Positions 21,048 to 42,087 are shown, counted from the first letter of the stretch. The stretch is DNA of 64,000 nt from Candidatus Latescibacterota bacterium (GCA_965215195.1 CBDCDC010000002.1:2144001-2208000); one strand, 5' to 3'. Program-made: numbers and translations. The notes: generated by a model not told the origin, from the letters alone.

Positions 21048-21094
21048 AAAGGAAAAGAGGGCCGGCTTAATCGCTATGATTAAACCGGCCTCTT
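21048..21094 (-). terminator. Intrinsic terminator/attenuator hairpin after the short Cys-rich gene
   Basis: Minus strand GAGGCCGGTTTAATC-ATAGC-GATTAAGCCGGCCCTC then TTTTCCTTT; related hairpins at about 41110-41260 (MITE-split) and 49241-49286. Confidence 0.65.
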
Positions 21095-21259: not shown

Positions 21260-21547
21260 TTAGGGAACACACTCGCAACGCAAAAAGAATAAGCTACAGT
21301 CTTCAAACTGTTCGTAATAGCAGCACCGGTTTGGTGCGTCACGATTCTTCCTTGCACATCCTGAGTTGTAGGGGCAATCATCGCTAAAAATGCGATGGTC
21401 GCACTCGTGATCGTCAGCTTTGACTTGCTTCGCCCCGAGCAGGATGGCGACCCCGGTGAGGGCGCTGATGACCCACCCGAGCCCCAACCCCTGCCGCATC
21501 GGAGCCAAGCCGCTCGACGACGTGAAGAATTCCCTCAAGCTATCCAT
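21260..21547 (-). CDS. Small Cys-rich precursor (95 aa), conserved leader plus 8-Cys core, no CTD
   Basis: MDSLREFFTSSSGLAPMRQGLGLGWVISALTGVAILLGAKQVKA|DDHECDH...CECVP; SD AGGAGG; first clear gene after the sigma54 promoter. Confidence 0.85.
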   Translation of the reverse strand: MDSLREFFTSSSGLAPMRQGLGLGWVISALTGVAILLGAKQVKADDHECDHRIFSDDCPYNSGCARKNRDAPNRCCYYEQFEDCSLFFLRCECVP

Positions 21548-21690
21548 GCTTCTTTCCTCCTGATAACTCCAGTACCTCCGCGACCCCATGCCGCTACAAT
21601 ACTGGAAGTGAGCGTTGAGCAATGGCCGATACGAGTCCGTATTATCTCACCTCCTTTCGTCTGCATCGGCCTTGCCTTCGCGGAGTATAT

Positions 21691-21707
21691 ATGCAAGTTC
21701 CGTGCCA
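21691..21707 (-). promoter_or_regulatory. Sigma54 (-24/-12) promoter
   Basis: Minus strand TGGCACGGAACTTGCAT matches consensus TGGCACG-N4-TTGCW. Confidence 0.85.
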
Positions 21708-21830
21708 ACAAGCAGGCCACGCACAAAAAAATCCTTTAGGATGCACCTAAAGGATTGAAAAACATGATACTTAAAATTATGGAAAGGGTCTCTCTACGAT
21801 GCGCGGCCTCAGCCATTGGCGCAAGGCAGC

Positions 21831-21886
21831 ATACGATTTTCCGTATTTAATACGATTTTCCGTATCCTCAATACGATTTTCCGTAT
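21831..21886. promoter_or_regulatory. Three ATACG-N6-CGTAT palindromes; putative enhancer (UAS) for the sigma54 activator
   Basis: ATACGATTTTCCGTAT at 21831, 21850 and 21871, about 125-180 bp upstream of the -24 box. Confidence 0.7.
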
Positions 21887-21960
21887 GCGCTGAGGCCCCA
21901 CCATCCCACTTTCGCTCCACAGCATTGAGGCGGGCGGAAGAAGCCGCGGGATAAACTTAT

Positions 21961-23078
21961 GGAATCTCTGATTAAGTTTTCTGGCGTATTCTTCCCTGAG
22001 CGGCTATTGTCTAAGGCAACGGAGCCGATGCGATGCACCAACTCCGTTGTTCCGATGAAGCCTATCCCCCTAAGAAGAAGACCACCCGTAAAGAACGCTT
22101 TCTGTCGGAGATGCATGACCTGTTACCGTGGCACGCTCTGCTCCAACCGATTGAGCAGAAGTATCCGAAACCGGGTAGGGGTCGGCGTCCGATTCCGGCG
22201 GCGGTGATGGGGCGGATTTACTTCCTGCAACAGTGGTATGGCTTGAGTGATCCGGCGATGGAAGACAGTCTGTATGATGTCGAAACGATGCGCCGCTTCG
22301 CGGGGGTGACGCTTGACCGCATTCCGGATGAGACGACGATCTGCAAGTTCCGCCACTTCTTGGAGAAGCATCGTTTGACGGAGGCCTTGTTTCAGCGTAC
22401 CGCACAGTATCTGTCGGCACGGGGTATGCTCGTCCGCGCGTGGACCCTCGTGGACGCGACGATCGTCCACGCGCCCACGTCGACGAAGAACCAAGCCCAG
22501 GCTCGGGACCCGCAGATGGGGTCTACGAAGCAGGGGACGACGTGGTATTTTGGCCTCAAAGCGCATGTGGGTAGTGATCTTCAGGGGCGGGTGCCTCGCG
22601 TCGTGGTGCCCTCGGCCTCGGGGCATGATTCGACGGGGATGGACGAGTGTTTGCATGGCCAAGAACAGGTCATCTATGGCGACAAAGCCCATGCCCGTGC
22701 CCAACGCCAAGCCGCCGCCGAATCGGATAGTATTCAGTGGCGGGTGCTTCGCAAAGCCCGCCGCCGCAAGAAGCTGACCGGGGCCGATCGTGCGTTCAAC
22801 CCAAAGAGCAACCGCGTCCGAGCCCGGGTCGAACATGCCTTTGGGGTCATCAAGCACCTGTGGGGCTATCGCAAAGTGCACTATCGCGGGTTGGCCAATT
22901 TCTATCTGGCGCGTAGCGCATTGGCCGCGAGGTAGGCCGCCGTCGGTCCCGAGGGGGGGATCGGGACGAGGAACGGGGAGAAAAACACCGGAAAAATAGA
23001 GCCCGGTGCCCATGTGGTACGGAATATAACACTCAGAGGTGGCTGTTAAATAAAAAAACTGACTTGATCAGAGGTTCC
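21961..23078 (+). mobile_element. IS5-family insertion sequence, probably degenerate
   Basis: TIRs GGAATCTCTGATTAAGT / ACTTGATCAGAGGTTCC; flanks (TTAT vs TATA) do not form a target duplication. Confidence 0.85.
22033..22935 (+). CDS. IS5-family DDE transposase, possibly inactive
   Basis: KTTRKERFL.EM..LLPW, LQQWYGLSD..MED, PDETTI.KFR, VDATI, FGLKAHVG, GDKA, RARVEH motifs; C-terminus looks internally shortened. Confidence 0.85.
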   Translation: MHQLRCSDEAYPPKKKTTRKERFLSEMHDLLPWHALLQPIEQKYPKPGRGRRPIPAAVMGRIYFLQQWYGLSDPAMEDSLYDVETMRRFAGVTLDRIPDETTICKFRHFLEKHRLTEALFQRTAQYLSARGMLVRAWTLVDATIVHAPTSTKNQAQARDPQMGSTKQGTTWYFGLKAHVGSDLQGRVPRVVVPSASGHDSTGMDECLHGQEQVIYGDKAHARAQRQAAAESDSIQWRVLRKARRRKKLTGADRAFNPKSNRVRARVEHAFGVIKHLWGYRKVHYRGLANFYLARSALAAR

Positions 23079-23323
23079 TATAATGGATGCTTGGGCGGTC
23101 CCATGCTGTCTTATCCTCGTTCGAGTCAAACAGCTCAACGCAATGGCCTCTTAGAAGCGGTCCTAAGTACGCGACCCTTACTTTGAGTACGCATTTTCTG
23201 CTGTGTCCGATATGTCCAGGATCGAGGGCGTCTCGCCCTCGCACCCAAGCCTCTGGGGCCGCAGAGGCCGGCACGAGAGGTTTGTCACGCCTCTTCACCG
23301 CGCCTGGTGCAGCAGACAACTCC
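23079..23323. repeat. REP-like intergenic block (copy 3), cut by the IS5 right end
   Basis: Homologous to 1790-2080. Confidence 0.8.
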
Positions 23324-25414
23324 TCACGGCAGCTTCGTCGTCTTTTTCGCTTCCACTCGCCCATCCACTTCGACCCGATAGACATACACCCCGGCGGCCA
23401 CGTCTTTGCCCGCCGCGTCGCGGCCGTCCCACACAAACCGATGATTCCCCGCCCGCAGCGGACCATCCCACACCTGCCGCACCCGACGACCCAACACATC
23501 GTACACCGTCAGCGACACCCCCGCCGCGTCCGTCGCTAAATCAAGAGGGATCACCACCGCCGGATTGAACGGATTGGGATAGCTGTCGCCGAGCCGATGG
23601 CTCACCGGTCGGCCCGCTGCCGCTGGCGTCAGCACCGCGGTCATCTGTTCGCCCACCAGACTCTTGAGCACATGTACGCCGCCCAATACCGAATCCAACA
23701 CCACCAAGTCCAGATCGCCGTCGCCATCGACATCGCCGGAAAGCACCTGTACCCCATCGCCGGCCAAGCGATGGGTCTCTACTTCTTTAGTTGGGTTCGC
23801 ACCTCCGCCCCATTCGATAAACACGCCAAAACCCGAGGCGCGGTCCCCGCCGACAAACGCCCAATCATCTACCCCATCGGCGTCCAAGTCATGCACCATC
23901 ACCGGAGAGCGTAGAAACAGCCGTCCATCATACAGCACCTCCTCTTCTACACCGTCCCCAAGTCGATGGCTCCGCACAACGAGACCCTTGCGATGTTCGG
24001 GGCCTTCGTAGCGCAAGGCCGCCAGCAAATCGACTTGCCCATTGCCATCAAAATCGCCCGTTCGTAAAAAAGTGGCTGAATCGAGGCTCCGGGCGGGCTC
24101 GAAGACCAATAGGGAACCCTCCGTAAATTCACCTCTCAACCGAGACATAACCCATGTGTGGGCTTGGCCGAAGATGGGTGCCCACAGCACGTCCAACTCC
24201 CCATCGCCCGTAAGGTCGCCCACCTGAAAGGGACCATGATCCTCGGGGAGTGCCGCCAACCGCGAAGCAGTCCATACGCCACCCGCTACATCCCAGACTT
24301 CCAAATAGGAGTCGTCTTCAGAAAAAAGTTCGACATCGCCGTCGCCATCCCAATCCACGAGATCCACCATATAGCGATCGCTCATCTGCGCGAGCACCTC
24401 AATCTGGAGGGCTGGCCCCAGAGACCAAACCGCTGGTTTACCATTTATAACCAGCACAATCTCATCGGTCCCATCGCCGGTCAAGTCGCCCGCCTGCACA
24501 TTCAAGGAAGCCAATCCCGTCTCCTCGGTGAGGACGGATTCAAAGGCCCCTTCGCCATCGTTAAGGGCTATGACCCAACCGTCTGTGGACAATCCCTTGG
24601 GCGGGAAATGGTCCCAAACAGCAAAAAGGTCTAAGTCGCCATCGCCATCCAAATCCGTCAAGACGCCGGCCCTGCGGTCTCCTCTAACGAAGGAGTCCCC
24701 TAAACCTAGCACAATGGGATAGAAAACCGGCGGCGCAAAACGTCCAGCACCCTCAAAGTGAAAATACTCAGCTTGAGGAGGTGGCAATTCCCCCTGTAAG
24801 ATCTCTTCCACGCCGGCCAACTCAATCCAGTCGATCTCCAAGCCGCCCACCTTCGCCTCGGCCGGGCGCGGTACATTTATTTCGCCCTGATCCAAGTAAA
24901 AACTCAGCCGAATATCCCTCAACGCACCGTCCCATAGAATCTCATCCTGGTCTGCAATGGAGATTGCTACTTCTTGCCACTCGGTCGTGAAAACAAAATT
25001 CCGTGGACCCGGGATCCGAAAGCGTCGTTTAGTAGGAAACTCAGGATCGTGCCCCGGCAGCATGAGGTTGTGTTCATTGGTCCATTTGAAGTTAAAAAAA
25101 CCTAACGTGGGGATGTGATGGATCGTGCGGAACCGAATCTGCACCCGGTCGAAAAGGGCCGATTCGTAGCCTATCGTAGGAGAAATCACTTCGACACTCG
25201 GATTATCGTCATCCGAACGAAACGCCTCAATTGCCCACACGTCGTCTGCAACCACCCCAGACAATAGGTGAAACGAATGACGGCCGCCGGATGAAACGTC
25301 CTTTTTGGCGGACCACCCTTGGGTCGTCTCGCCATCGAAATCCCACCGAATCGCCTCAGTGGAGCTACCCCATAGCATCACGCATATAAAAACGAGGGGC
25401 TTCAACATAATCAC
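23324..25414 (-). CDS. FG-GAP/FlgD-CTD secreted protein, paralog 7 (most divergent)
   Basis: 696 aa; same framework with many substitutions, but the CTD is near-identical to the others. Confidence 0.85.
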   Translation of the reverse strand: MIMLKPLVFICVMLWGSSTEAIRWDFDGETTQGWSAKKDVSSGGRHSFHLLSGVVADDVWAIEAFRSDDDNPSVEVISPTIGYESALFDRVQIRFRTIHHIPTLGFFNFKWTNEHNLMLPGHDPEFPTKRRFRIPGPRNFVFTTEWQEVAISIADQDEILWDGALRDIRLSFYLDQGEINVPRPAEAKVGGLEIDWIELAGVEEILQGELPPPQAEYFHFEGAGRFAPPVFYPIVLGLGDSFVRGDRRAGVLTDLDGDGDLDLFAVWDHFPPKGLSTDGWVIALNDGEGAFESVLTEETGLASLNVQAGDLTGDGTDEIVLVINGKPAVWSLGPALQIEVLAQMSDRYMVDLVDWDGDGDVELFSEDDSYLEVWDVAGGVWTASRLAALPEDHGPFQVGDLTGDGELDVLWAPIFGQAHTWVMSRLRGEFTEGSLLVFEPARSLDSATFLRTGDFDGNGQVDLLAALRYEGPEHRKGLVVRSHRLGDGVEEEVLYDGRLFLRSPVMVHDLDADGVDDWAFVGGDRASGFGVFIEWGGGANPTKEVETHRLAGDGVQVLSGDVDGDGDLDLVVLDSVLGGVHVLKSLVGEQMTAVLTPAAAGRPVSHRLGDSYPNPFNPAVVIPLDLATDAAGVSLTVYDVLGRRVRQVWDGPLRAGNHRFVWDGRDAAGKDVAAGVYVYRVEVDGRVEAKKTTKLP

Positions 25415-25427
25415 TCACTTTCTCACA

Positions 25428-25665
25428 TGGATGCTTGGGCGGTCCCATGCCGTCTTATCCTCGTTTGCGTCAAATAGCTCAACGCAATGGCCTCTTAGAA
25501 GCGGTCCTAAGTACGCGACCCTCACTTTGAGTACGCATTTTCTGCTGTGTCCGATGGGTCCAGGATCGAGGGCGTCCCGCCCTCGACGAGGGCAAGATGC
25601 CCTCGCACCCAAGCCTCTGGGGTTTGTCACGCCTCTTCACCGCGCCTAGTGCAGCAGACAACTCC
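25428..25665. repeat. REP-like intergenic block (copy 4)
   Basis: Near-identical to 27258-27495. Confidence 0.8.
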
Positions 25666-25855
25666 TCACGGCAGCTTCGTCGTCTTTTTCGCTTCCACCC
25701 GCCCGTCGATTTCGACCCGATAGACATACACCCCAGCGGCCACCGCCTTACCTTCCCCGTCGCGCCCATCCCACACAAACCGATGGCTCCCCGCCGCCAG
25801 CGACCCGTCCCACACCTGCCGCACCCGACGACCCAACACTTCGTACACCGTCAAT
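25666..25855 (-). pseudogene. Orphan FlgD-CTD 3' fragment
   Basis: LTVYEVLGRRVR...KKTTKLP* starting just after the DUF4159 stop; lacks YPNPFNP and any N-terminal part. Confidence 0.75.
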
Positions 25856-25858
25856 CCC

Positions 25859-27205
25859 TCACTCCGCATCAACTAATTGCCGTGCCAGCGATCCCTCCCG
25901 CGTCAACGCATACACCACGACATTGACGCCCAAATTATACACCAACGGCTCCTCGGCACTGAAGAGAGACGAGTGGTTGATTACGTTATTCGCCAAAGAC
26001 CAATCCATCAACTCCCGACCGATGCCCGCCCAGAAATCGGCATAGCCGCGCATTGAATACACCCCCACCAACTGCTCCCCAACTACGATGCCCTCCAAAT
26101 AGTCCGGGGTACGGGGCGGGTAGTCTTGTCCGTCAACGACAAAGTTCATATCGCGCATCCCCCGCGGCAGACTGTTTACATCGTAGAAGCAATGATAGAG
26201 CGGATGGGTTAGCTCTAGGCGAGTAAACTTCCAGTCCTTCCATTCTTGATAGCCCACCGCTTGGAAGCTGGCGCGAATGAGGGAACGCACCGCCGGAATA
26301 TCCAATTCGTCATCGCTGTAATTGGGCCACAAAAAGCGCACAATGTCCGCAAACAGGAAGCCGCCGCCGGTCAAATACGTCCCTAAATTGGCCGCCTCGC
26401 TGTCCGTAAACTCAAAGGGGGTATCGGCGGTCAGGAGGACGAAGGGGACTTGCAAAAGCTGCGGATCGTCGAGCCGAACCGCGTCGCGCACCTCAACGTG
26501 AACCTGCGTTGTGGCGACCATCTTGTCGGCCAACCCTTGCAGCATCCGCCGTTCCACCAAGCGGCGCGGCATCTGGTGATACCAGCGCACTTGTCTGTTT
26601 TCGGCCTGTTCACTGTATTCAGCCCGTTCGATGGAAGGGCTGTAAATGCCGGACATATAGAGAAAGCCCTTGAGCTTGCGCCGGTCTTGGGGATCAACGA
26701 CCACCATCGCCCGGTGCTGACCCGTGTCCATCGCCTGCACATCCATCAGTTCCAACGCCAAGTCAATCTCGTCGGCCCCCTGCCGCACTCCTTCCAATGC
26801 CCCAACCCGTAGGGACGGACCAATGTGCCGAGCGGGGAAGTCCGGCACCGGCAGCACCAGCCGTGCCGGCAACGACGCCGTCGGCAGCCGGAGCGCCGAG
26901 GTCTGGAACAGGGGCAACGGCCGCGTCGCCGACGGTGCCGGCCGCATGGCCACCACCGGGGCCGCTTGCAGGGCGGAGCGGCGCACTAAGGGACGCTGTT
27001 GGGGCCTCTGCCGGCGGGCGAGGGTGCGTGGCAGCGGGCGCTTCTTGGTAAACTTCACCATGATCGGCGGTTGCACGGGAAAGTGAGTAGCCCGCTCATG
27101 GCGCGGAATTCCGAAGATCACCAGCAGATGCAAAGCCAGCGACAGCGCCAAGCAGCTTTGCAGCTTTCTATTTTTTCTGAATGGGACTTTCCACGGTCGT
27201 TTCAT
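25859..27205 (-). CDS. DUF4159-domain protein (copy 3)
   Basis: 448 aa; C-terminal half near-identical to 396-1742. Confidence 0.8.
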   Translation of the reverse strand: MKRPWKVPFRKNRKLQSCLALSLALHLLVIFGIPRHERATHFPVQPPIMVKFTKKRPLPRTLARRQRPQQRPLVRRSALQAAPVVAMRPAPSATRPLPLFQTSALRLPTASLPARLVLPVPDFPARHIGPSLRVGALEGVRQGADEIDLALELMDVQAMDTGQHRAMVVVDPQDRRKLKGFLYMSGIYSPSIERAEYSEQAENRQVRWYHQMPRRLVERRMLQGLADKMVATTQVHVEVRDAVRLDDPQLLQVPFVLLTADTPFEFTDSEAANLGTYLTGGGFLFADIVRFLWPNYSDDELDIPAVRSLIRASFQAVGYQEWKDWKFTRLELTHPLYHCFYDVNSLPRGMRDMNFVVDGQDYPPRTPDYLEGIVVGEQLVGVYSMRGYADFWAGIGRELMDWSLANNVINHSSLFSAEEPLVYNLGVNVVVYALTREGSLARQLVDAE

Positions 27206-27225
27206 CGGCTCACCTCCCTTCGCAA

Positions 27226-27495
27226 AGCAGGATTAAACCGGCGTAAATCCAGTATAATGGATGCTTGGGCGGTCTCATGCCGTCTTATCCTCGTTCGAGT
27301 CAAACAGCTCAACGCAATGGCCTCTTAGAAGCGGCCCTAAGTACGCGACCCTCACTTTGAGTACGCATTTTCTGCTGTGTCCGATGGGTCCGGGATCGAG
27401 GGCGTCCCGCCCTCGACGAGGGCAAGATGCCCTCGCACCCAAGCCTCTGGGGTTTGTCACACCTCTTCACCGCGCCTAGTGAAGCAGACAACTCC
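27226..27495. repeat. REP-like intergenic block (copy 5) with FMN-gene 5' remnant
   Basis: Same junction to the DUF4159 start as at 1745-1815. Confidence 0.8.
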
Positions 27496-27685
27496 TCACG
27501 GCAGCTTCGTCGTCTTTTTCGCTTCCACTCGCCCATCCACTTCGACCCGATAGACATACACCCCGGCGGCCACGTCTCTGCCCGCCGCGTCGCGGCCATC
27601 CCACACAAAACGATGGCTCCCCGCCCGCAGCGGCCCCTGCCACACTGGCCGCACCCGACGACCCAACACTTCGTACACCGTCAAT
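27496..27685 (-). pseudogene. Orphan FlgD-CTD 3' fragment
   Basis: Same breakpoint as 25666-25855. Confidence 0.75.
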
Positions 27686-27688
27686 CCC

Positions 27689-29026
27689 TCACTCCGCATC
27701 GACTAGTTGCCGTGCCAGTGATCCCTCGCGCGTCAGGGCATACACCAAGAGATTCACCCCCAAATCATACACCAACGGCTCTTCGGCACTAGCGAAAGAC
27801 GGGCTGTTCATTGCGTTCTCCGCCAAAGACCAATCCAGCAACTCCTTACCTTTTCCCCCAAAAAAATCGGCGTAGCCCTTCATCGAGTACACCCCGACCA
27901 ACTGCTCCCCAACTACGATGCCCTCCAAATAGTCCGGGGTGCGCGGCGGGTATTCTCCAACGGTAAAGTGCATATCGCGCATCCCGCGCGGCAGGCTATT
28001 TACATCGTAGAAGCAATGATAGAGCGGATGGGTTAGCCCCAAGCGGGTAAACTGCCAGTCCTTCCATTCTTGATAACCCACCGCTTGGAAGCTGGCGCGA
28101 ATGAGGGAACGCACCGCCGGAATGTCTAATTCATCGTCGCTGTATTTGGGTCGCAAAAAGCGCACAATCTCGGCAAACAGGAAGCCGCCGCTGGTCAAAT
28201 ACCCCCCTAAATTGGCTGCCTCGCTGTCCGTAAACTCAAAGGGGGTAGCGAAGGTCATGAGGACGAAGGGGACTTGCAAAAGCTGGGGATCGTCGAGCCG
28301 GACCGCGTCGCGCACTTCGACGTGAACCTGCGTCTTGGCGACCATCTTATCGGCCAACCCGTGCAGCATCCGCCGTTCTATCACTTGGCGCGGCATCTCA
28401 TAATAGAAGCGCCCTTGTGAGGAGTTGGTCTGTTCGGACTCAGCCCGTTCAATAGAAGGGCTATAAACACCGGACATATAGAGGAAGCCCTTGAGCTTGC
28501 GCCGGTCTTGGGGATCGACCACCACCATCGCCCGGTGCCGACCCGTGTCCATCGCCTGCACATCCAGCAACTCCAAGCCCAAGTCAATCTCATCGGCCCC
28601 TTGCCGCGTCCCTTCCAACGCTCCAGCCCGCAGTTGCGGACCAATGTGCCGCGCCGGGAAATCCGGCACCGGCAGCACCAGCCGATTCGGCAGCGATGCC
28701 GACGGCAGCCGAAGCGCCGATGTTTTGAACACCGGCAGGGGACGCGACGCCGACGGTGCCGGCCGCATGGCCACGACCGGGGCGGCTTGCAGGGCGGCGC
28801 GGCGCACCAACGGGCGCTCGCGGGGCCGTTGCCGCCGGCTGAGGGTGCGCGGCAGCGGCCGCTTCTTGGTAAACTTCACCATGATCGGCGGTTGCACGGG
28901 AAAGTGCGTGACCCGCTCATGGCGTGGGAGTCCGAAGATCACCAGCAGATGCAAAGCCAGCGACAACGCCAAGCAGCTTTGCAGCTTTCTATTGCTTCGG
29001 AACGGGACTTTCCACGGCCGTTTCAT
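27689..29026 (-). CDS. DUF4159-domain protein (copy 4, in the complete operon)
   Basis: 445 aa; translationally coupled to GT2 (ATGA overlap). Confidence 0.8.
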   Translation of the reverse strand: MKRPWKVPFRSNRKLQSCLALSLALHLLVIFGLPRHERVTHFPVQPPIMVKFTKKRPLPRTLSRRQRPRERPLVRRAALQAAPVVAMRPAPSASRPLPVFKTSALRLPSASLPNRLVLPVPDFPARHIGPQLRAGALEGTRQGADEIDLGLELLDVQAMDTGRHRAMVVVDPQDRRKLKGFLYMSGVYSPSIERAESEQTNSSQGRFYYEMPRQVIERRMLHGLADKMVAKTQVHVEVRDAVRLDDPQLLQVPFVLMTFATPFEFTDSEAANLGGYLTSGGFLFAEIVRFLRPKYSDDELDIPAVRSLIRASFQAVGYQEWKDWQFTRLGLTHPLYHCFYDVNSLPRGMRDMHFTVGEYPPRTPDYLEGIVVGEQLVGVYSMKGYADFFGGKGKELLDWSLAENAMNSPSFASAEEPLVYDLGVNLLVYALTREGSLARQLVDAE

Positions 29027-32563: not shown

Positions 32564-32574
32564 CGTCCCCTCCT

Positions 32575-33780: not shown

Positions 33781-34090
33781 ACCTCGCAGTTCCCTCCTCG
33801 GTTACAGCTTTTGCACGGCTTCCCATACCGGCGGCATCCCGCGCGCAAAAGAAGCGATGGTTCCCTCCTCGCTGATCACGTAAAATTGCGGTACGCCCCC
33901 GATCTGATAGGCTTGGGCAACCGCACCGGCCGAATCGACCAAAACGGGTATGGCCAAGTCGTGGGTTTCGACGATTTGCTGCACTTGGCCTTTCGTGCCT
34001 TGGCTGACTAGTGTCTTTTGACAACTAAAGTTATGGATGCGATATTCATGTCGAATCTCCAGCGCGAACTGATACCTGAGGAGTCTAGAT

Positions 34091-34531
34091 ATGAAGAAAT
34101 ATATCGTGCGTCTCCCCGACGAAGCGCGTCAGCAGTTAGAAGCTCTGGTCAGCACAGGTCACGCCCCAGCCTACAAGATCAAACACGCGAATATACTTTT
34201 GAAAGCCGATGCAGCAGGGCCCTGCTGGACAGATAGGGCTATTGCGGAAGCATTCGCCTGCCATAGAGTCACCGTCGAAAACGTTCGGAAACGTTTTGTA
34301 GAGCACGGGATGCAGGCGGCCTTAGAACGTAAAAAGCGCGTACAGCCGCCCCGCGAGAAGATTCTGGATGGAGCCGGTGAAGCCCGTTTGATCGCGCTGG
34401 CTTGTAGCCATCCCCCCGAAGGACGCAACCGCTGGACATTGGAGTTACTGGCCGACACGTTGGTCGAACTCAACGTGGTGGACTCCATTTCGTATCGCAC
34501 GGTGGGACGGACGCTAAAAAAAACGAATTGA
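34091..34531 (+). CDS. IS630 transposase OrfA (HTH)
   Basis: ILLKAD, VENVRKRFVEHG, LIALACS.PPEGRNRWTL.LLAD; ends at an A8 slippery run (34516-34523). Confidence 0.85.
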   Translation: MKKYIVRLPDEARQQLEALVSTGHAPAYKIKHANILLKADAAGPCWTDRAIAEAFACHRVTVENVRKRFVEHGMQAALERKKRVQPPREKILDGAGEARLIALACSHPPEGRNRWTLELLADTLVELNVVDSISYRTVGRTLKKTN

Positions 34532-35214
34532 AGCCGCATCTGCGTACCTGTTGGGTGATTCCACCTGAACAAAATGCAGCCTTTGTAGCCTGCATGGAAG
34601 ATGTTCTGGATCTGTATCATCGGCCCTACGATCCGAAAAGGCCTTGGGTGTGCATGGATGAGCAGCCCATCCAGTTGATTGGAGAAACCCGTATCCCGCT
34701 GCCCGCACGGCCTGGACACCCCCAACGGTATGATTACGAATACGCGCACAATGGCACAGCGGTCAATTTTCTGTTTACAGACCCCTTGGCCGGTTGGCGC
34801 AAGGTCAATGTGCGCTCACGCAAGACCGCTGTGGACTGGGCTTTTGAAATCAAAGAGCTATTGGAGGTGGATTATCCAGATGCTGAAGTGGTCTTGGTGG
34901 TGTGTGATAATCTCAACACGCACACGATTGCCGCTTTGTATGAAGCGTTTGAACCGGCCCAAGCGCGCCGGTTAGTTAGACGACTTGAGTTGCATTACAC
35001 CCCCAAACATGGCAGTTGGCTCAATATCGCTGAAATTGAGTTGCGCATTTTGTCCCAGCAATGTCTAAATGCGCGCATACCCGATGAAGAGACCTTGAAG
35101 GCGGAAACCCACGCTTGGGAACAGGCACGCAACGAAAACCAGAAAGCCGTGGACTGGCGGTTTACCACCGATGATGCGCGCATTAAACTGAAACGGCTTT
35201 ACCCAAAATTTTAA
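34528..35214 (+). CDS. IS630 transposase OrfB (DDE), fused by -1 frameshift
   Basis: MEDVLDLY, CMDE, YDYEY..NG, DNLNTH, TPKHGSWLNIAEIE, RIKLKRLYP. Confidence 0.88.
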   Translation: MKPHLRTCWVIPPEQNAAFVACMEDVLDLYHRPYDPKRPWVCMDEQPIQLIGETRIPLPARPGHPQRYDYEYAHNGTAVNFLFTDPLAGWRKVNVRSRKTAVDWAFEIKELLEVDYPDAEVVLVVCDNLNTHTIAALYEAFEPAQARRLVRRLELHYTPKHGSWLNIAEIELRILSQQCLNARIPDEETLKAETHAWEQARNENQKAVDWRFTTDDARIKLKRLYPKF

Positions 35215-35548
35215 GTGTCAATAGATACTAGTAGTAAATGGATCTCTTGGGGAAGGTCGTACTCTACCAAGTGGCTTTCTAACTCGTTGCAATACGGGCA
35301 GGTAGGGGTTACAAAGATCAGCCCTACTCGCTGCCCCTTAAAACCGCTGAGTCTGACGGGGTCCCCTTGCACGGAGGGCAATTCAAAATCAGGGGCATCC
35401 GTTCCCTCAGACAGAGGCTCAGAACGCTTTGTATCCCCCTCGCTCCAGACGATCCCCACTGATTCCTCAGACTTCCCCTTAAAAATTAGCGCGAGCAACA
35501 AGACCACGCTGACAAGCCCGGCGATCTTCCAATGCTTTTGATCGGCCA

Positions 35549-36100
35549 TCATTGTGTCCTCTCTTCTTCTATTACTTTTTGCGCGGACTGCACGATGTTC
35601 TCAATCGGAAAGCCTGAACCCCGAACGGCCTCGACGATCCGCTGTTCCCCATCCACCAAAAGCGCGGTCGGGAAATTCGTGATGTTGAGATGCTCCATTG
35701 TCAGCAGCGTATCTACGGCAATGGGAAAGGCCAAGGCGTGTTCGGTGACCTTTTCCATCAATCCTTCCCGCGTGTTGGCAATCATCAAGATGGGAATATC
35801 GGTAGCCGCTTCCCCTATAATGGGGTACATGGTATCACAGGCATCACAACCTAACAGGGTGAAGACCAGCAAGTAAGAAGTACCTTGGTACAGGTAAGTA
35901 GAAATAGAGGCACCGTCTAACTGTTCGAGGTCGTATTCCGGGATGCGTTTCCCTAGCAGGTAGTCTAAGCCGGTAGCCACTGGGGCGATTGGCGGATTGT
36001 TGATTTTTGTCGCCAATAATATGCTAGTCCCCAAGAAGATGCCCAACACTGTTGACAGCAACAGCATCGTCGCTTGCGGTTTCGAGCGCGTAGCTTCCAT
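35549..36100 (-). CDS. Membrane-anchored thioredoxin-fold (TlpA/redoxin) protein, CDAC
   Basis: N-terminal TM; GKRIPEYDL, GCDAC, FPIAVD, NFPTALLVD. Confidence 0.8.
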   Translation of the reverse strand: MEATRSKPQATMLLLSTVLGIFLGTSILLATKINNPPIAPVATGLDYLLGKRIPEYDLEQLDGASISTYLYQGTSYLLVFTLLGCDACDTMYPIIGEAATDIPILMIANTREGLMEKVTEHALAFPIAVDTLLTMEHLNITNFPTALLVDGEQRIVEAVRGSGFPIENIVQSAQKVIEEERTQ

Positions 36101-36118
36101 CGTGTACCTTTCCTTTCC

Positions 36119-37276
36119 CTAAAGCGCATCGAACAACGGCTGAATCCACCGATTGGCCGGCCGGACGATACTGCCGGCCCATATCAGGGTTAGGCTGACG
36201 CCAACCATTAAGGCCGGCGCAAAAGGCAGCGACAGTTCAATCTCTACCTGATCATCCCATTCGCGAAACAACCCCTTCTTTTGTAAGTCTTTTAATTGGC
36301 GCACTTTCCTGATGGTCAACGGCTTTCCCTTTCGGCCTATTCGCTCTCGTGTATCTCTACTCTGCTCGCTGAATGCGACCACTTCGACTCGATCTTTGGC
36401 GGGGGTTTCATAAATCGACTGGTGTAATACCATGCCCGGTTGTAAGGCATCGATAGAGACCGGCTGTACAAACTTCTGGTAGTCGAGAGAATGGATATAC
36501 ACATAGACGTTCCGTATGCCCCACAGCACAGCCCAAAGCACCAGATAGATCAGATAGTTCCCGGTGCTAATGGCGCTAAAGATACCGATTACAAGCCCGG
36601 GAACGATCAAGATGATTTTATTGGGTGCCTTAGTCATATCTTCATGAATCAAATAGAGCACCGCTCCCACCACGATAGCCTCGGCAAGAGTCAACGTCAC
36701 ACCGACTAACGTCGTCCCCCCTAACACCAGTCCGCTCAGGCCGGCCGCCTCAACCCCAGAGCGCAACCAACCCCAACTCATGCCCTTTCTAGGCTCGCTT
36801 GCAGGGGTCTCGATGGATTTTGTGGGTTTATGGATGACCAGAAGGACTAAAAGAAAAACGGTATTGGTCAAAATGGTATTGACCAACAAGGCCCAAATAG
36901 GAGCATTCAGCGAAAAGAAGGCCAAGGAAAACGTCGGCCATTGCCCACCAAACAACGTACTCGGTATGGCCGCGACCATGGCCCAATACAGCTTGGCATC
37001 TCCCGCCCCCCAGAAGCCATACATAAACAACAGGTAGCCGACGACAAATCCCAACAGACAGGATAGACCGATCTGGACGAGTGTAACCTCGCCCAAGACC
37101 CACAATCCCATCTGTCCCATCAACCCAAGACCGAGCAAGATCCAAGTAGCCGAGTTGGGAATCTCTCTATGGCTGATGTCCGTATAGGTGGTGTAGGAGG
37201 CGACCACCATGATCGAGCACAGTAAGGCCCATTCTAACAAGAAGACGGCATTGACCTCATTCAGCAACACATTCAT
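36119..37276 (-). CDS. A24-family prepilin/preflagellin-type aspartic peptidase, long form
   Basis: YTDISHREIPN (Asp1), WGAGDAKL (GxGD Asp2), multiple TMs, soluble C-domain (LQPGMVL) and terminal LPFAPAL. Confidence 0.85.
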   Translation of the reverse strand: MNVLLNEVNAVFLLEWALLCSIMVVASYTTYTDISHREIPNSATWILLGLGLMGQMGLWVLGEVTLVQIGLSCLLGFVVGYLLFMYGFWGAGDAKLYWAMVAAIPSTLFGGQWPTFSLAFFSLNAPIWALLVNTILTNTVFLLVLLVIHKPTKSIETPASEPRKGMSWGWLRSGVEAAGLSGLVLGGTTLVGVTLTLAEAIVVGAVLYLIHEDMTKAPNKIILIVPGLVIGIFSAISTGNYLIYLVLWAVLWGIRNVYVYIHSLDYQKFVQPVSIDALQPGMVLHQSIYETPAKDRVEVVAFSEQSRDTRERIGRKGKPLTIRKVRQLKDLQKKGLFREWDDQVEIELSLPFAPALMVGVSLTLIWAGSIVRPANRWIQPLFDAL

Positions 37277-37289
37277 AGCCCAATACTCC

Positions 37290-37880
37290 TCAAAAGGTGA
37301 TTCCCGTGGACTCTGCTAGCCAAGTTCCGGCTTGGCTCCATTGAGTCACCAAGGCATTCACGGACCGGGTAGCTCCGGTTATTCCATCGATATCTCGGCC
37401 TACGACCAAAGGCTCCGAGAGTGCCCGCCCGCTCAGTTGGGCAAAGAAGGCGGTCGGATCGAAGGGGCCATCGGCCAGTTCCCAAGATTCCAAGGGCAAA
37501 ACAGCCGCAACGCGATCTTCTTTCGGCCCGATGAGGATGCCCGCTAGTAGATCGCGGCAGGTCGCACAGGCAATATCGTGGCGCACGACGACTAGCTTGT
37601 AGGCCAACGCCTCGTCGTTTGTAAGAACGCGATAGGCTGACAATACACCGGAACGCGGCGCGGGTGTGGCCTGATACACTTCTGTTAGGTAGAGAGCGCT
37701 CGCGGTGGAATCGAACTCAGCGAGACGAAGAAGCATGACTTCTTCTGGTGGAATAGACGGCAGGGGCGATTCGGGGCTGAGGCTCTTTTCATAAAGGCCC
37801 ATAAGCAGGATGATCGCAGGTATTAATAGCAGGATTAAACCGGAGTAAATCCAGTATAATGGATGCTTAGGCTGTCCCAT
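37290..37880 (-). CDS. Membrane-anchored FMN-binding (flavinylation-motif) protein with CxxC
   Basis: N-terminal TM; IDGITGATRS matches the D-x-x-[ST]GA[ST] motif; CATC. Confidence 0.75.
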   Translation of the reverse strand: MGQPKHPLYWIYSGLILLLIPAIILLMGLYEKSLSPESPLPSIPPEEVMLLRLAEFDSTASALYLTEVYQATPAPRSGVLSAYRVLTNDEALAYKLVVVRHDIACATCRDLLAGILIGPKEDRVAAVLPLESWELADGPFDPTAFFAQLSGRALSEPLVVGRDIDGITGATRSVNALVTQWSQAGTWLAESTGITF

Positions 37881-37926
37881 GCCGTCTTATCCTCGTTCGA
37901 GTCAAATAGCTTAAAAGAATGTCCTC

Positions 37927-38748
37927 TTACGGCAGCTTCGTCGTCTTTTTCGCTTCCACCCGCCCATCAATTTCGACCTGATAGACATACACCCCGGCGG
38001 CCACCGCATTGCCCACCTCGTCGCGGCCATCCCACACGAACCGATGACTCCCCGCCCGCAGCGACCCGTCCCACACCTGCCGCACCCGACGACCCAACAC
38101 GTCGTACAGAGCCAAGTGGACCCGATCTTCGTCGTTAGCGAGATCGAGGGGAATGACCATTGTGGGATTGAACGGATTGGGATAGGCATTGCCCAGCCGA
38201 TGCTGCGCCGGCCGCGCTGCCGCCGACATCTGCACCGCCGTCGCAGTCGGTTGCTCCGCTTCCGAACAGGGCGTGGACGAGCACTCGCAATCTAACCCAG
38301 CAATGTCGTCATCCACGTTATAGTACGTGGTGCAGTACCGGTATGGCGTGGTCGAGTTTCTCTCCGCGCACCCGTCGTGGTAGCGACACTCCGTCTTTGG
38401 GGGGGTGAGGCAAGGGGCGGTCGGCTGCTCAGCCTCCGAACAGGGGATGGAGGAGTACCAGCAATCTCCGGTTATGTAGAGGTTACACTGCAAGTCCAAG
38501 CCATAGGTGCAGTAGCGGTATTGCTCGGTCGAATCCGCCGGGGCCCTATCGAAGCAGGGGTGGGGGCTGGAACTGGAGCTACAGCCGATCCAAGTAGTAG
38601 TCCCACACCGCACCCTGTCGTCGTCGTCGGATTCCCTAGCACTGGCGAGGATCGCAAGCCCCGCAAGGGCGATGATAACCCACCCCAATCCCTGCCGAGC
38701 CGGGGCCAAGCCGCTGGATGAGCCGATAAATTCACGCAAACTGTTCAT
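37927..38748 (-). CDS. Cys-rich secreted protein with conserved leader and FlgD-CTD
   Basis: 273 aa; MNSLREFIGSSSGLAPARQG; 14 Cys; two modules ending PCSEAEQPTA. Confidence 0.85.
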   Translation of the reverse strand: MNSLREFIGSSSGLAPARQGLGWVIIALAGLAILASARESDDDDRVRCGTTTWIGCSSSSSPHPCFDRAPADSTEQYRYCTYGLDLQCNLYITGDCWYSSIPCSEAEQPTAPCLTPPKTECRYHDGCAERNSTTPYRYCTTYYNVDDDIAGLDCECSSTPCSEAEQPTATAVQMSAAARPAQHRLGNAYPNPFNPTMVIPLDLANDEDRVHLALYDVLGRRVRQVWDGSLRAGSHRFVWDGRDEVGNAVAAGVYVYQVEIDGRVEAKKTTKLP

Positions 38749-38861
38749 AGTTTACCTCTCCTTAGTTGCTCAGTACATCCGCGGCCGTGCCACTACGGTA
38801 CTCGAAGTGAGGATTGAGCAGTAGCCGACACTATCTCACGAAATGAATTCATCCCCATCCC

Positions 38862-41066
38862 TCAAGGCAGCTTCGTCATCTTTTTCGCTTCCACCCGCCC
38901 ATCAATTTCGACCTTATAGACATACACCCCGGCGGCCACCGCCTTGCCCGCCGCGTCGCGGCCATCCCACACAAACCGATGACTCCCCGCCCCCAGCGGC
39001 CCCTGCCACACCTGCCGCACCCGACGACCCAACACATCGTACACCGCCAGCGACACCTCCGCCGCGTCCGTCGCTAAATCAAGAGGGATCACAACTGCCG
39101 GATTAAACGGATTGGGATAGCTGTCGCCGAGCCGATGTTGCACCGGCCGCGCTGCCGCTGGCGTCATCACCGCCGTCGCCTGCTCTCCCAGCGAATTCTT
39201 GAGTACATGCACTCCACCCAAGATCGGATCCAACACCACCAAGTCGAGATCGCCGTCGTTATCCATATCCCCGGACAGCACGGATCGCCCATTGCCCTCC
39301 AGCCAATGCCGCTCCCCGGCTTGAGTCGGGTTGACACTCCCTCCCCATTCGACAAAGACCCCAAAGCCCGAAGCCCGATCCCCGCCGATAAACACCCAGT
39401 CGTCCACCCCATCGGCGTTGAGATCGCGCACCAGCACCTTCGAGCGCCGCAACAGCCGATCATCATACAGCACCTCGGCTTCTAAGCGGTCTCCGGCTTC
39501 CTTGCTCTGCAAGACGATGCCCTTGCTCCCTTCAACTTGATCGGATGCCACCTCCGTGAGGAAATCCACTTGCCCATCCCCATCAAAATCGCCCACCCCT
39601 AACGTCGATGTATGTTCATCGAATTCAAAGATCGCGCCGCTCTGAGGCTCTTCGCCCAAGGCCCCCACAAACCACCTGTAAATCCCCCTCGACTCCCCGC
39701 GGATCGGCGTCCAAAACACGTCAAGTGTCTCATCGCCCGTAAAGTCGCCAATATGATGGGGTACATCGGTTTCGGAATACGCCACCTCCTCGAAGGTCCA
39801 TACGCCCTGTTCTACATCCCATACCTCTAGCGTGCTATAAAACTCCGCCGTACCCGCTATCGCTTCGTCTAAAGTGCCTTCATACGTAGCCCCTCCTACA
39901 ATTAATTCGGCCTTCCCGTCGCCATCCCAATCCGCCACACTATGAACCCATCTATCGACCTGCACGAGCATCTCGACTTGGAGATCCGGCCCGATAGACC
40001 ACACTTCTGTGCGGAGCTCCCGGTTGCTTCGCGATATCGCGATTTCGTCTTGACCATCGCCCGTCAAATCAGCACCCATCGCCTCTAAGTTCACCCCTGA
40101 GAAGACTAGTACCGTTTCGCCACCAATAGTAACCTCCCTTGGTTCCTCTTCTTCCTGTATAACAGGCCCCCGTTCTAAGGTCCCTTGCCCGTCATTGAGG
40201 GCCATCAGCCAGCCACTTATAGGTCTAGGCCCCTCTGATTCCGTTTCCATTCCCGTTTCCCAGAGGCCAAAAAGGTCTAAGTCGCCATCGCCATCCAAGT
40301 CCGTCAACACGCCCCCTTCCCTGTCGCTTAGATAGCCTTTTCTATGTCCTCTAGCGCCTACTTCTCCTATGCCTAGCGCAATCGGATAGAACACTGGTGA
40401 GGCAAAAAGTCCAGCCCCCTCAGAACGAAAGTAGTACTCTACGTGCGGCGGCGGCAGTTCCCCCTCTATCTGCTCTTCCACGCCCGTCAACTCGATCCAG
40501 TCGATCTCAAACGACTCAACGGCACCCGAACCATCTAGAAAAAAACCGAGTCGAATATTTTTCAATAGGCCCTCCCAGTGGTCTTGATCCGCCAACAACA
40601 GCACCACTTCCTGCCACTCGGTGGTAAAGACTATTCGTTGTCGGGGTTCGGGGCTGTCCTCAAAAAGGCCAAGGCCTACATAGCCTGAAGAGTAGTTTTC
40701 CCAATACATCCAAACCACCCCTTCCGTAGCGCGGTCATGGACGGTGCGGCAGCGGATGCGGACTTGATCGAACAAGCCCGAATCATACCCAATGGTATAA
40801 GAAACCACTTCGACATTCGACTGCCCAGAGGTGGTCAAATTCTCGAGGACGGAGGGCGAGACCGTGATGCGCCACACGCCGTCTTCAACCACCCCCGGAA
40901 ACTGGCTAAATTCACGCGTACCACCCACTTTATGAGTTTCTTTAGGGGTCCACCCTTGCGTCGTCCCATCGTCGAAATCCCATTTGATCGCCTCGGCGGG
41001 ATCGCCCCATAACACCACGCATACAATAACGGCTAGCTTCAACATGAGACCACAGCTCCTTTCCAA
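38862..41066 (-). CDS. FG-GAP/FlgD-CTD secreted protein, paralog 8
   Basis: 734 aa; same framework. Confidence 0.85.
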   Translation of the reverse strand: MERSCGLMLKLAVIVCVVLWGDPAEAIKWDFDDGTTQGWTPKETHKVGGTREFSQFPGVVEDGVWRITVSPSVLENLTTSGQSNVEVVSYTIGYDSGLFDQVRIRCRTVHDRATEGVVWMYWENYSSGYVGLGLFEDSPEPRQRIVFTTEWQEVVLLLADQDHWEGLLKNIRLGFFLDGSGAVESFEIDWIELTGVEEQIEGELPPPHVEYYFRSEGAGLFASPVFYPIALGIGEVGARGHRKGYLSDREGGVLTDLDGDGDLDLFGLWETGMETESEGPRPISGWLMALNDGQGTLERGPVIQEEEEPREVTIGGETVLVFSGVNLEAMGADLTGDGQDEIAISRSNRELRTEVWSIGPDLQVEMLVQVDRWVHSVADWDGDGKAELIVGGATYEGTLDEAIAGTAEFYSTLEVWDVEQGVWTFEEVAYSETDVPHHIGDFTGDETLDVFWTPIRGESRGIYRWFVGALGEEPQSGAIFEFDEHTSTLGVGDFDGDGQVDFLTEVASDQVEGSKGIVLQSKEAGDRLEAEVLYDDRLLRRSKVLVRDLNADGVDDWVFIGGDRASGFGVFVEWGGSVNPTQAGERHWLEGNGRSVLSGDMDNDGDLDLVVLDPILGGVHVLKNSLGEQATAVMTPAAARPVQHRLGDSYPNPFNPAVVIPLDLATDAAEVSLAVYDVLGRRVRQVWQGPLGAGSHRFVWDGRDAAGKAVAAGVYVYKVEIDGRVEAKKMTKLP

Positions 41067-41129
41067 CAGGTAAAATTCCGACCGACCGCGTACTATCCGT
41101 GCAAAAAAAAAAGAGCACCGGCTTAATCA

Positions 41130-41232
41130 CTGACGTTACGCAGTTTTCCAGAAAATTCTCAATTTCACCCCAACATCTTGGGTCAACAGGCTTCGATAAA
41201 CCACAAGATAGAGAGCGACTGCGTAACGTCAG
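41130..41232. mobile_element. 103-bp MITE
   Basis: 15-bp perfect TIR CTGACGTTACGCAGT / ACTGCGTAACGTCAG with 7-bp duplication TTAATCA; empty site at about 21067; left end also present at 16079. Confidence 0.85.
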
Positions 41233-41288
41233 TTAATCACTACGATTAAACCGGCCTCTTACCCCTTAGAAGCGGCCTTGATCTCTCC

Positions 41289-41570
41289 CTATGGGCAAAC
41301 GCAGCACTCCCAATGAGAGCATTGTCTCCTGCAGTTCACATCCATCGAACATGTCCTACATTCGCACTCCTTTATCCCATTCGTGTGCACAGCGCAATCT
41401 GCGTTAGACCTACTCTGTGTCCGTGGGTCGGGCTCGCAGGCAGCAGCTTCTCGCGCCCCGAGCAGGATGGCGACCCCGGTGAGGGCACTGATGACCCACC
41501 CGAGCCCCAACCCCTGCCGCATCGGAGCCAAGCCGCTCGACGACGTGAAGAATTCCCTCAAGCTATCCAT
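41289..41570 (-). CDS. Small Cys-rich precursor (93 aa), conserved leader plus 10-Cys core
   Basis: Leader identical to that of 21260-21547 through ILLGA; core CEPDPRTQ...WECCVCP is unrelated at the sequence level. Confidence 0.85.
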   Translation of the reverse strand: MDSLREFFTSSSGLAPMRQGLGLGWVISALTGVAILLGAREAAACEPDPRTQSRSNADCAVHTNGIKECECRTCSMDVNCRRQCSHWECCVCP

Positions 41571-41713
41571 GCTTCTTTCCTCCTGATAACTCCAGTACCT
41601 CCGCGACCCCATGCCGCTACAATACTGGAAGTGAGCGTTGAGCAATGGCCGATACGAGTTTGTATTATCGCACCTCCTTTCGTCTGCATCGGCCTCGCCT
41701 TCGCGGAGTATAT

Positions 41714-41730
41714 ATGCAAGTTCCGTGCCA
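41714..41730 (-). promoter_or_regulatory. Sigma54 (-24/-12) promoter
   Basis: TGGCACGGAACTTGCAT on the minus strand; identical to 21691-21707. Confidence 0.85.
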
Positions 41731-41853
41731 ACAAGCAGGCCACGCACAAAAAAATCCTTTAGGAGGAACCTAAAGGATTGAAAAACATGATACTTAAAAT
41801 TATGGAAAGGGTCTCTCTACGATGCGCGGCCTCAGCCATTGGCGCAAGACAGC

Positions 41854-41945: not shown

Positions 41946-42087
41946 GCACTGAGGCCCCACCATCCCACTTTCGCTCCACAGCATTGAGGCGGGCGAAAGA
42001 AGCCGCGGGATAGACTTAAAGTAAAGCGACCCGCTTTGAAGACTTGGCTTTTGAGTTAGCTCCGGGGCCCTTGTAAAACGTTGCCCT

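Follow-up and report, generated by a model that had tools for sequence, protein, structure and literature searches.

The window analysed here is a 64-kb stretch of DNA from a Candidatus Latescibacterota bacterium (C2:2144001-2208000 of a 6.13-Mb, two-contig genome that is 95.2% complete), and positions are counted within it unless a contig is named. It contains two short genes, peptide A and peptide B (Table 1), each encoding an N-terminal leader followed by a cysteine-rich core. Judged from their sequences, the two are paralogues in a large, undescribed family of secreted cysteine-rich mini-proteins. A preliminary description had proposed that the two genes share near-identical DNA across promoter, 5' leader and signal peptide and then diverge abruptly. 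Pairwise alignment bears this out, with 517 of 534 aligned bases identical between the two copies of the shared block and the end of identity placed exactly after the leader motif ..LLGA. Within the block, leader codons 1-39 agree at 116/117 bases, the 5' untranslated region (UTR) and promoter at 159/163, and the sequence upstream of the promoter at 242/254 aligned bases, the last with a 36-base indel that corresponds to two extra repeat units. Straight after the junction, the two cores align with 65 matches, 89 mismatches and 20 gaps, a similarity that we judge to lie near chance level from base composition, without a shuffled control. Beyond the stop codon similarity returns, first in a terminator-like hairpin and then in the next gene; sliding windows of 60 nt show 97-100% identity in the block, 10-42% in the core and 25-97% in the downstream gene. 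A 47-nt leader probe has exactly two sites in the window, those of A and B, where 0 are expected by chance; from this probe and the alignment it follows that the shared block reaches about 420-450 nt further than the preliminary description had it. The cysteine counts given there for the five family members of the window (8, 10, 12, 14 and 14) and the two C-terminal motifs of A and B are also correct.

The leader follows a defined layout: an SxSG...RxG segment, then LxLGW opening a hydrophobic stretch of about 20 residues (residues 19-39), and AxA shortly before the first cysteine. In an alignment of 43 diverse members, positions F7, S10, S12, G13, G20 and G24 are near-invariant (at least 90%). 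The G↓LxLGW-like pattern, the arrow marking the candidate cut, is present in 281 of 300 members, and AxA occurs no more than 12 residues ahead of the first cysteine in 231 of the 300. Read without a dedicated predictor, the leader has the n-region, the h-region and the small residues at -1 and -3 (AxA) of a Sec signal cleaved by signal peptidase I. It also has the mark of a class III signal peptide, namely a glycine at -1 before the hydrophobic stretch with a polar or charged leader ahead of it. Its conservation is far above the needs of an ordinary Sec signal.

The genome holds 12 family members. Subfamily 1 comprises three short genes (A, B and a third at C2:464267-464542) and three long genes, and subfamily 2, with a longer leader, comprises four short and two long genes. 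A profile built from the seven short genes retrieved 390 proteins at E<=0.01 among 8000 candidates scored, a search with B alone gave 149 database matches, and an exhaustive profile search of 1.84 billion cluster representatives gave 95 at E<=0.001. Pfam and NCBIfam scans returned no family for A or B, and the homologues are named only 'hypothetical protein' in the databases, from metagenome-assembled genomes of Gemmatimonadetes or Gemmatimonadota. Within the genus, the family is found in 16 of 24 other species, patchily and with 0-20 copies per genome; in a sample of the phylum, 36 of 168 genomes are positive, nearly all from one taxonomic family (f1 30/75, f2 3/31, f4 2/22, other families 0). 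Full-text literature searches, which did not cover supplements, turned up no paper on this bacterial peptide family, and the available parts of PMC8238504 and PMC12426817 do not mention it. We retain the view that A and B are conserved genes whose small cysteine-rich products combine an unchanging export leader with a variable core. Two kinds of composite gene were also seen. The long subfamily-2 gene L010 (G000:C2:2779125-2779991) has a second, partial leader (h-region plus AxA) between two cysteine modules, which suggests a relic of tandem-gene fusion or of a join at the junction. Two predicted proteins in the database (P0246, P0249) join a portion of an A24-like peptidase to a peptide leader or core; these are probably deletions or assembly joins between adjacent genes.

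Cores across the family span 40-60 residues with 4-12 cysteines and fall into discrete frameworks. The B-class framework is found in at least 41 sequences, including orthologues with exactly the spacing of B in another species, and the A/C-class framework in about 50, including A and the third short gene. Another class ends in CWCSSTPCP and corresponds to a module of the long members, and further classes exist. In translation, the A core resembles the second cysteine module of the long members. A six-cysteine scaffold is nearly invariant in the 43-member alignment. The two cores had been called unrelated, which does not hold as worded: A and B are two different, conserved cysteine frameworks on a scaffold that hardly varies in the family as a whole. 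The comparison with conotoxins, in the sense of a conserved leader joined to several discrete cysteine frameworks, extends over hundreds of homologues.

The reading of the cores as disulfide-bonded mini-proteins is supported by an even cysteine count in 267 of 300 members (several of the odd-count ones being visibly truncated), by thioredoxin-like neighbours and by structure prediction. AlphaFold2 (AF2) models made with 45-47 homologues show a disordered N-terminal region, a helix at residues 23-45 and a confident core, with a predicted local distance difference test (pLDDT) of 82-91 for A and 82-87 for B and a predicted topology of a strand, a short helix and two or three strands. Searches of solved structures with both cores gave nothing at Z>=5 or at a Foldseek E<=0.001. 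As to a defensin-like, CS-alpha-beta or laterosporulin fold, the closest small-domain match for core A is laterosporulin3 (6lwy_A; VIA Z 3.4, rmsd 4.1 Å over 43 residues; Foldseek E 2.7, TMt 0.59), a match far below significance. The ESM Atlas gave no usable match for core A and, for B, two unnamed clusters of about 90 aa at 0.84 and 0.83, under the 0.9 lead level.

To compare the evolution of leader and core, we applied the Nei-Gojobori method to the 47 genes with DNA available, which gave 205 alignable pairs, 145 of them with a core dS of 0.05-1.5; the pairs are not independent. The leader has a median omega (dN/dS) of 0.19, no pair out of 141 above 1 and a pooled pN/pS of 0.28. The corresponding values are 0.64, 23/145 pairs and 0.76 for the core, and 0.89, 59/145 pairs and 0.95 for the core without its cysteine columns. 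The leader is under purifying selection, and the cores are near-neutral outside the cysteine columns. Values of omega above 1 are found mostly among the youngest pairs. Two tandem subfamily-2 copies have a core dN of 0.45 against a dS of 0.24, and two A-type orthologues a core dN of 0.24 against 0.16. The diversifying selection proposed earlier draws some support from the core pairs above 1, but these fit relaxed or episodic selection and are no proof of it.

Since synonymous sites in the leader diverge between species (dS 0.2-0.8), it is the protein and not the DNA on which selection keeps the leader constant across species. The histories of leader and core are also discordant: leader dS is less than one third of core dS in 15 pairs and more than three times core dS in 9, and P0100, a strain copy almost identical to A, agrees with the A core at 56/56 residues but has three changes in the leader, while the leader of A equals that of B. 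From this discordance we deduce recombination at the junction; we interpret the pattern as within-genome gene conversion of the promoter-UTR-leader block and, more generally, as exchange at the junction. The cassette exchange that had been suggested is upheld to this extent, but not as allelic cassettes of one locus, the P0100 core being unchanged. In contigs from sequencing runs (minimum likeness 80), one from run X1 is identical over 41206-41465, a span that takes in the B core; runs of three other studies have depth over promoter and leader and almost none over the B core, with X6 contigs unlike the window from 41455. Paralogues bar the use of any of these as allele evidence. Of the 21 runs catalogued, none is recorded as RNA. 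A mechanism of the diversity-generating-retroelement type and allelic cassettes were considered and rejected, each core class having orthologues in other species and no reverse transcriptase being found among the open reading frames scanned in the window.

The window also encodes a polytopic aspartyl protease of the A24 family, one of only two Peptidase_A24 matches in the genome. Its catalytic motifs D33 and GAGD93 are invariant in 12 aligned sequences, including the paralogue at 42% identity. Among the 24 other species of the genus, 13 have the A24 gene and all 13 have peptides, and 8/8 peptide-free species lack it. In 9/9 genomes with both on one contig, no more than 3.1 kb separates the A24 type of 80-88% identity from a subfamily-1 gene; in 6/6 genomes, the type of 40% identity is found 1.9 kb upstream of a gene of subfamily 2. 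In five genomes from four other genera, 12/16 peptide matches are within 5 kb of an A24 match and 10/12 A24 matches (E<=1e-30) are within 5 kb of a peptide, one genome having four separate A24-peptide pairs. A separate A24 paralogue accompanies each leader subfamily, a pairing seen in at least five genera. A predicted complex of the protease with leader residues 1-50 scored 0.43 against 0.01 for the best control, with a contact agreement of at least 74% between runs and a partner pLDDT of at least 60; the score mark used is reached by 58/80 solved complexes and 2/110 mismatched pairs, and the passing scores at or below 0.60 come from only 7 of the 80 solved complexes and from both passing mismatches.

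A putative redox module flanks the A24 gene, with an FMN_bind-like gene on one side and, on the other, genes for two transmembrane (TM)-anchored CxxC thioredoxin-like proteins, TrxA and TrxB. At 11 other syntenic loci, the TrxA-like gene is found in 11/11, the TrxB-like gene in 11/11 and the FMN_bind-like gene in 10/11, and the module recurs in a genome from another family. A paper on extracytosolic flavinylation treats modules for electron transfer with FMN-binding and thioredoxin-like proteins in general, but its available part does not concern this cluster (PMC8238504). In genome L078, a Mutator-family transposase gene splits the TrxB counterpart.

Table 1. Features of the window discussed in the text, grouped by subject (positions within the 64-kb window; aa, amino acids; CTD, C-terminal domain; T9SS, type IX secretion system)
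Feature	Position	Strand	Description
Peptide A	21260..21547	-	95 aa; leader of residues 1-39 and a c-region with an AxA-type site at its end; core about 50 aa with 8 Cys (A/C-class framework); ends CECVP; orthologues in other species
Peptide B	41289..41570	-	93 aa; leader as in A; core with 10 Cys (B-class framework); ends CCVCP
Shared block, copy A	21431..21964	-	upstream repeats, palindrome, putative sigma-54 promoter, 5' UTR of about 125 nt, Shine-Dalgarno site, leader codons 1-39
Shared block, copy B	41454..42023	-	same parts plus two extra upstream repeat units
Long member	6742..7509	-	255 aa, 12 Cys, T9SS CTD; TIGR04183 29.9 bits (cut-off 23)
Long member	7528..8334	-	268 aa, 14 Cys, CTD-like end; FlgD_ig 40.7 bits; TIGR04183 22.8 bits, just under cut-off 23
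Long member	37927..38748	-	273 aa, 14 Cys in two modules, leader of the same type; sorting domain of T9SS type A, TIGR04183 27.4 bits (cut-off 23)
A24-family (prepilin/preflagellin-peptidase-like) polytopic aspartyl protease	36119..37276	-	Peptidase_A24 35 bits (cut-off 26.5); FlaK_Arch 1.8e-7
FMN_bind-like protein	37290..37880	-	TM-anchored; CxxC and TGAT motifs; FMN_bind E 0.049, 14.7 bits (cut-off 22)
Thioredoxin-like TrxA (ResA-like)	35549..36100	-	TM-anchored; CxxC; NCBIfam ResA 7.5e-8, under cut-off
Second thioredoxin-like gene (TrxB)	35211..35552	-	CPYC motif; truncated by DDE_3 transposase
DDE_3 transposase	34528-35214	+	cuts the TrxB copy of the window
Candidate sigma-54 -24/-12 site of A	21692..21707	-	exact TGGCAC-N5-TTGCA, 160 nt upstream of ATG
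Candidate sigma-54 -24/-12 site of B	41715..41730	-	exact TGGCAC-N5-TTGCA, 160 nt upstream of ATG
Three tandem 16-mers ATACGGAAAATCGTAT	21831..21886	-	imperfect palindrome; candidate activator binding site
Five tandem 16-mers ATACGGAAAATCGTAT	41854..41945	-	upstream of B; candidate activator binding site
Bacterial enhancer-binding protein (bEBP; sigma-54 activator)	42088..45252	-	directly upstream of block B; N-terminal Reg_prop/Y_Y_Y sensor; Pfam Sigma54_activat 6.4e-68, Reg_prop 2e-41
FG-GAP repeat protein	18878..21004	-	FlgD_ig/T9SS-type CTD; directly downstream of A
FG-GAP/T9SS-CTD paralogue	38862..41066	-	directly downstream of B
Terminator-like hairpin	21057..21093	-	GC-rich, then T-rich run; between peptide A and FG-GAP gene; read from sequence
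IS5-like DDE transposase	22033-22935	+	abuts upstream end of block A

Upstream of both genes, expression is probably driven by sigma-54. A and B have the GG and GC of the -24 and -12 elements at the correct spacing, together with an adjacent bEBP gene, in whose product no hydrophobic or TM segment was found by sequence. The third short gene has an exact consensus 158 nt upstream, and two further exact sites head subfamily-2 clusters. The number of matches in the window is not above chance (2 found against 1.9 expected at one mismatch), and the assignment is made because of the position of the sites and because 5 of the 24 exact consensus sites in the genome lie in the peptide system. The 16-mer ATACGGAAAATCGTAT has 8 sites in the window against 0.05 expected, from which we infer a possible regulatory role for these repeats. 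A strong Shine-Dalgarno site precedes A and B, and an Rfam scan gave no match in the shared 5' UTR.

Further sequence elements were noted around these promoters. The palindrome AATCCTTTAGG-N5-CCTAAAGGATT lies just upstream of the A and B promoters (21730-21756 and 41753-41779) and also upstream of a subfamily-2 cluster promoter (C2:2362251 region), and is a candidate operator. A Shine-Dalgarno-like GAAAGGAGGTG is found near the predicted 5' end of the long UTR (about 21645-21656 and 41668-41679) and in subfamily-2 5' UTRs, where it could be an mRNA-stabilising or standby site. Downstream of the genes, the A 3' flank (21094-21259) has an inverted repeat of about 21 nt around some 110 nt between stop codon and terminator, and in the B copy a small insert, with inverted repeats of 14 nt at its ends, interrupts the terminator-like hairpin (41124-41236 flank); both inserts, bounded by inverted repeats, are in the style of miniature inverted-repeat transposable elements (MITEs). 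The sole Rfam match in the window is a thiamine pyrophosphate riboswitch at 57910-58006 (-), 70.6 bits, directly upstream of a TonB-dependent receptor gene (55466-57868). Genes for an NYN/cold-shock-domain protein (49557-50756, -) and a CotH kinase-like protein (61253-62872, -) are also present; for neither of these, nor for the radical SAM gene discussed below, did the window scans reveal a conserved connection with the peptide genes.

The long members connect the family to the type IX secretion system, for which the genome encodes PorU (628.6 bits) and SprA (499.4 bits). As in T9SS type A cargo, all three long members of the window and the neighbouring FG-GAP proteins end in a Por_Secre_tail/FlgD_ig domain, the TIGR04183 cut-off being passed by the long members at 6742-7509 and 37927-38748. 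Unlike such cargo, A and B end in CxCxP-type motifs and have no C-terminal sorting domain.

From the observed anatomy, family size, synteny, co-occurrence and substitution patterns we infer every biochemical step and role in the scheme that follows. The genes would be transcribed from the sigma-54 promoter under control of the neighbouring Reg_prop activator, and the long hydrophobic leader would bring the precursor to the Sec machinery. The core would be set free at AxA, and the thioredoxin-like and FMN_bind-like module encoded alongside would fold it oxidatively in the periplasm. The dedicated A24 protease would read the invariant leader motif and cut at the glycine before the helix, either to process the precursor or to clear the spent leader. 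In the long paralogues, the same modules would reach the cell surface by means of the T9SS C-terminal domain. The leader would be kept constant by purifying selection and by within-genome conversion of the promoter-UTR-leader block, while the cores would drift or diversify and be reshuffled relative to the leaders. Taken globally, a system of exported, disulfide-rich mini-proteins with a constant leader, a dedicated A24 protease and redox module and sigma-54 control is a reading that we consider moderately probable. Biologically, the peptides most likely bind targets, in an antagonistic or a recognition role, with antagonistic peptide, host or surface ligand, and partner of the downstream protein as candidates.

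Several points weigh against this scheme. The combination of AxA and G↓L cleavage sites in one leader is unusual, and the order and purpose of the two cuts are guesses; the long member at 7528-8334 has no glycine before the helix. Core omega is mostly below 1, and relaxed constraint is therefore a sufficient explanation for core variation. The FMN_bind and ResA assignments lie under their curated cut-offs, and the TrxB copy of the window is truncated by a transposase gene. The congeners G011, G022 (94% complete) and G024, whose members are all long or degenerate, have no A24 match; G039, outside the genus, has an A24-like match with no peptide match, and in G126 three of five peptide matches and two A24 matches are not adjacent. 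The co-occurrence counts also overstate the support for an A24 role, because related genomes are not independent, and the predicted complex of protease and leader lies in the weak band of scores. Finally, the proposal covers no exit of the short forms from the periplasm.

The role of the A24 protease can be taken in two directions. Type IV prepilins and archaellins have class III signal peptides that are cut by A24 peptidases (PilD, FlaK, PibD), and a glutamate at +5 of the mature protein is a criterion for bacterial pilins. In the first direction, which we offer tentatively as a possibility, stand-alone A24 proteases would have been recruited, in a genome that appears to have no type IV filament machinery, as subfamily-specific leader peptidases of a conotoxin-like, redox-matured and sigma-54-switched peptide superfamily; in its boldest version, the invariant N-terminal fragment of 20-31 residues would be released into the cytoplasm as a signal, for example to the Reg_prop activator. 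In the second, the leader would be a class III signal peptide in the true sense: cleavage by the A24 enzyme at RxG↓L would leave the helix on the mature protein, and the variable Cys-rich head would be displayed in a membrane-anchored or polymerised state. This pilin-like alternative shares with prepilins and archaellins a dedicated A24 aspartyl protease, here with both Asp motifs and with features resembling FlaK and Arc_PepC, a polar N-region whose last residue is a glycine straight before a hydrophobic stretch of about 20 residues, and a conserved N-terminus with a variable C-terminal head; the AF2 model of a helix plus a small head fits as well, and so do the very weak hits on archaeal pilins (6w8u_A, Z 2.4; 8fjs_A, Z 2.1) obtained with the helix in the search model. 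However, position +5 is Trp or Gly (LxLGW) and not Glu, and the AxA after the helix is an additional conserved element. No T2SSE-type ATPase (PF00437) or T2SSF-type platform (PF00482) was found in the genome by searches that were positive in 13/14 control genomes. The heads have 4-12 cysteines and a linked thiol-redox module, and long members with the same leader have the T9SS C-terminal domain, which requires soluble periplasmic cargo. We therefore regard a pilin-like anchored or polymerised product as unlikely. By analogy, the N-terminus works like a class III signal peptide and the system as a whole like a conotoxin superfamily; it fails membership among pilins (+5 Glu, machinery) and among the known classes of peptides that ribosomes synthesise and that are modified after translation (RiPPs; enzyme).

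A further alternative is a partnership with the secreted protein that the next gene downstream encodes: the short peptides would serve it as cognate subunits or ligands and exit or act with it. An FG-GAP/CTD gene of about 700 aa directly follows 6/7 short genes in this genome, the seventh FG-GAP gene being interrupted by an insertion, and a terminator-like hairpin lies between peptide and downstream gene. In other genera (L077, L079, L080, L081), the place of the FG-GAP gene is taken by a gene for another protein, 300-340 aa long, which matches nothing in Pfam and has the shared N-terminal motif DRxYP..EL.DE....IDL.DG, and in G115 a MacB/FtsX-type permease gene follows the peptide gene. The occurrence of some protein at this place favours a partnership, but its identity varies by genus, and of nine full-length FG-GAP paralogues in the window only two have a short peptide gene directly upstream; overall, such a partnership seems rather improbable. 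The FG-GAP genes form a family of their own. The nine paralogues (about 700 aa, within 2081-49261) have near-identical N- and C-termini with variable middles and are interspersed with DUF4159, GT2, transglutaminase-like, TPR and WD40 genes, and their C-terminal domain is part of a repeat family with 14 copies of about 300 nt, to which the three long Cys-rich members and two weaker copies also belong.

Among RiPPs, the prochlorosins and the families with Nif11 or nitrile-hydratase-type leaders are known to pair one leader with many cores. They share with the present family one conserved leader type and many divergent Cys-rich cores per genome, and the preliminary description had drawn on this RiPP-like logic. 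In a classical RiPP, the cores would be enzymatically modified, for example by the radical SAM protein encoded about 10 kb away within the window (51429-52667, +), and the leader would guide the enzyme, in keeping with the leader-plus-core architecture. However, this leader, with its TM helix and AxA site, is of the membrane-targeting kind, the cores are confident mini-domains with conserved Cys scaffolds, and disulfide formation is the sole modification implied. No known RiPP enzyme family, lanthipeptide synthetase or other, was found in the scanned window genes, in the ±1.5-kb A24 loci or in one other-genus neighbourhood. In NCBIfam and Pfam, the short peptides (P0001, P0002) match no RiPP precursor model, and their neighbours are A24, thioredoxin-like, FMN_bind-like, FG-GAP, GT2 and similar genes. 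What stands of the RiPP-like view is a dedicated leader protease, and we consider a classical RiPP very improbable. A recent segmental promoter duplication beside unrelated or spurious reading frames, with no functional leader-core system, could be imagined from the IS5-like transposase gene that abuts block A and from the MITE-like insertions in both 3' flanks, but the same architecture in hundreds of homologues across genera, the purifying selection on the leader and the conservation of each core class in other species leave it a negligible chance.

Our preferred reading, that of exported and disulfide-rich mini-proteins with a constant leader, can be placed next to other secreted peptides. 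The heat-stable enterotoxins are Sec-exported, disulfide-bonded and exported via MacAB-TolC. The logic proposed here, of a Sec signal, periplasmic oxidation and export, is similar, and a MacB/FtsX-type permease is the neighbour in G115. Laterosporulin, a defensin-like bacteriocin (PDB 6lwy, 4ozk), gives the best small-domain fold match of core A, at its insignificant score, but is leaderless and has no sequence similarity to the peptides; neither it nor the enterotoxins are known to have an A24 protease or a hypervariable multigene family. There is also a likeness with conotoxin superfamilies and with other animal and plant cysteine-rich families such as MgCRP-I of mussels (PMC4558851): a highly conserved pre-region, a hypervariable mature peptide, few Cys frameworks and a multigene family of variable copy number. 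Unlike these, the present family is bacterial, has no sequence homology to them, forms operon-like clusters that include a protease and oxidoreductases dedicated to it, and keeps leader identity within a genome at the DNA level along with the promoter.

If the scheme is true, the family would be a bacterial counterpart of the animal and plant strategy in which a constant export leader is joined to many fast-changing, cystine-stabilised cores, and A24 peptidases would gain a role outside pili, archaella and type II secretion. If the recruitment of A24 proteases as leader peptidases also holds, the system would be a new class of bacterial peptide-producing system. The loci provide a tractable case of gene conversion holding leader and promoter constant as cores diverge. 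They also yield a rule for genome mining, the leader motif beside A24 and thioredoxin-like genes, which already gathers several hundred small, stable and naturally diversified scaffolds.

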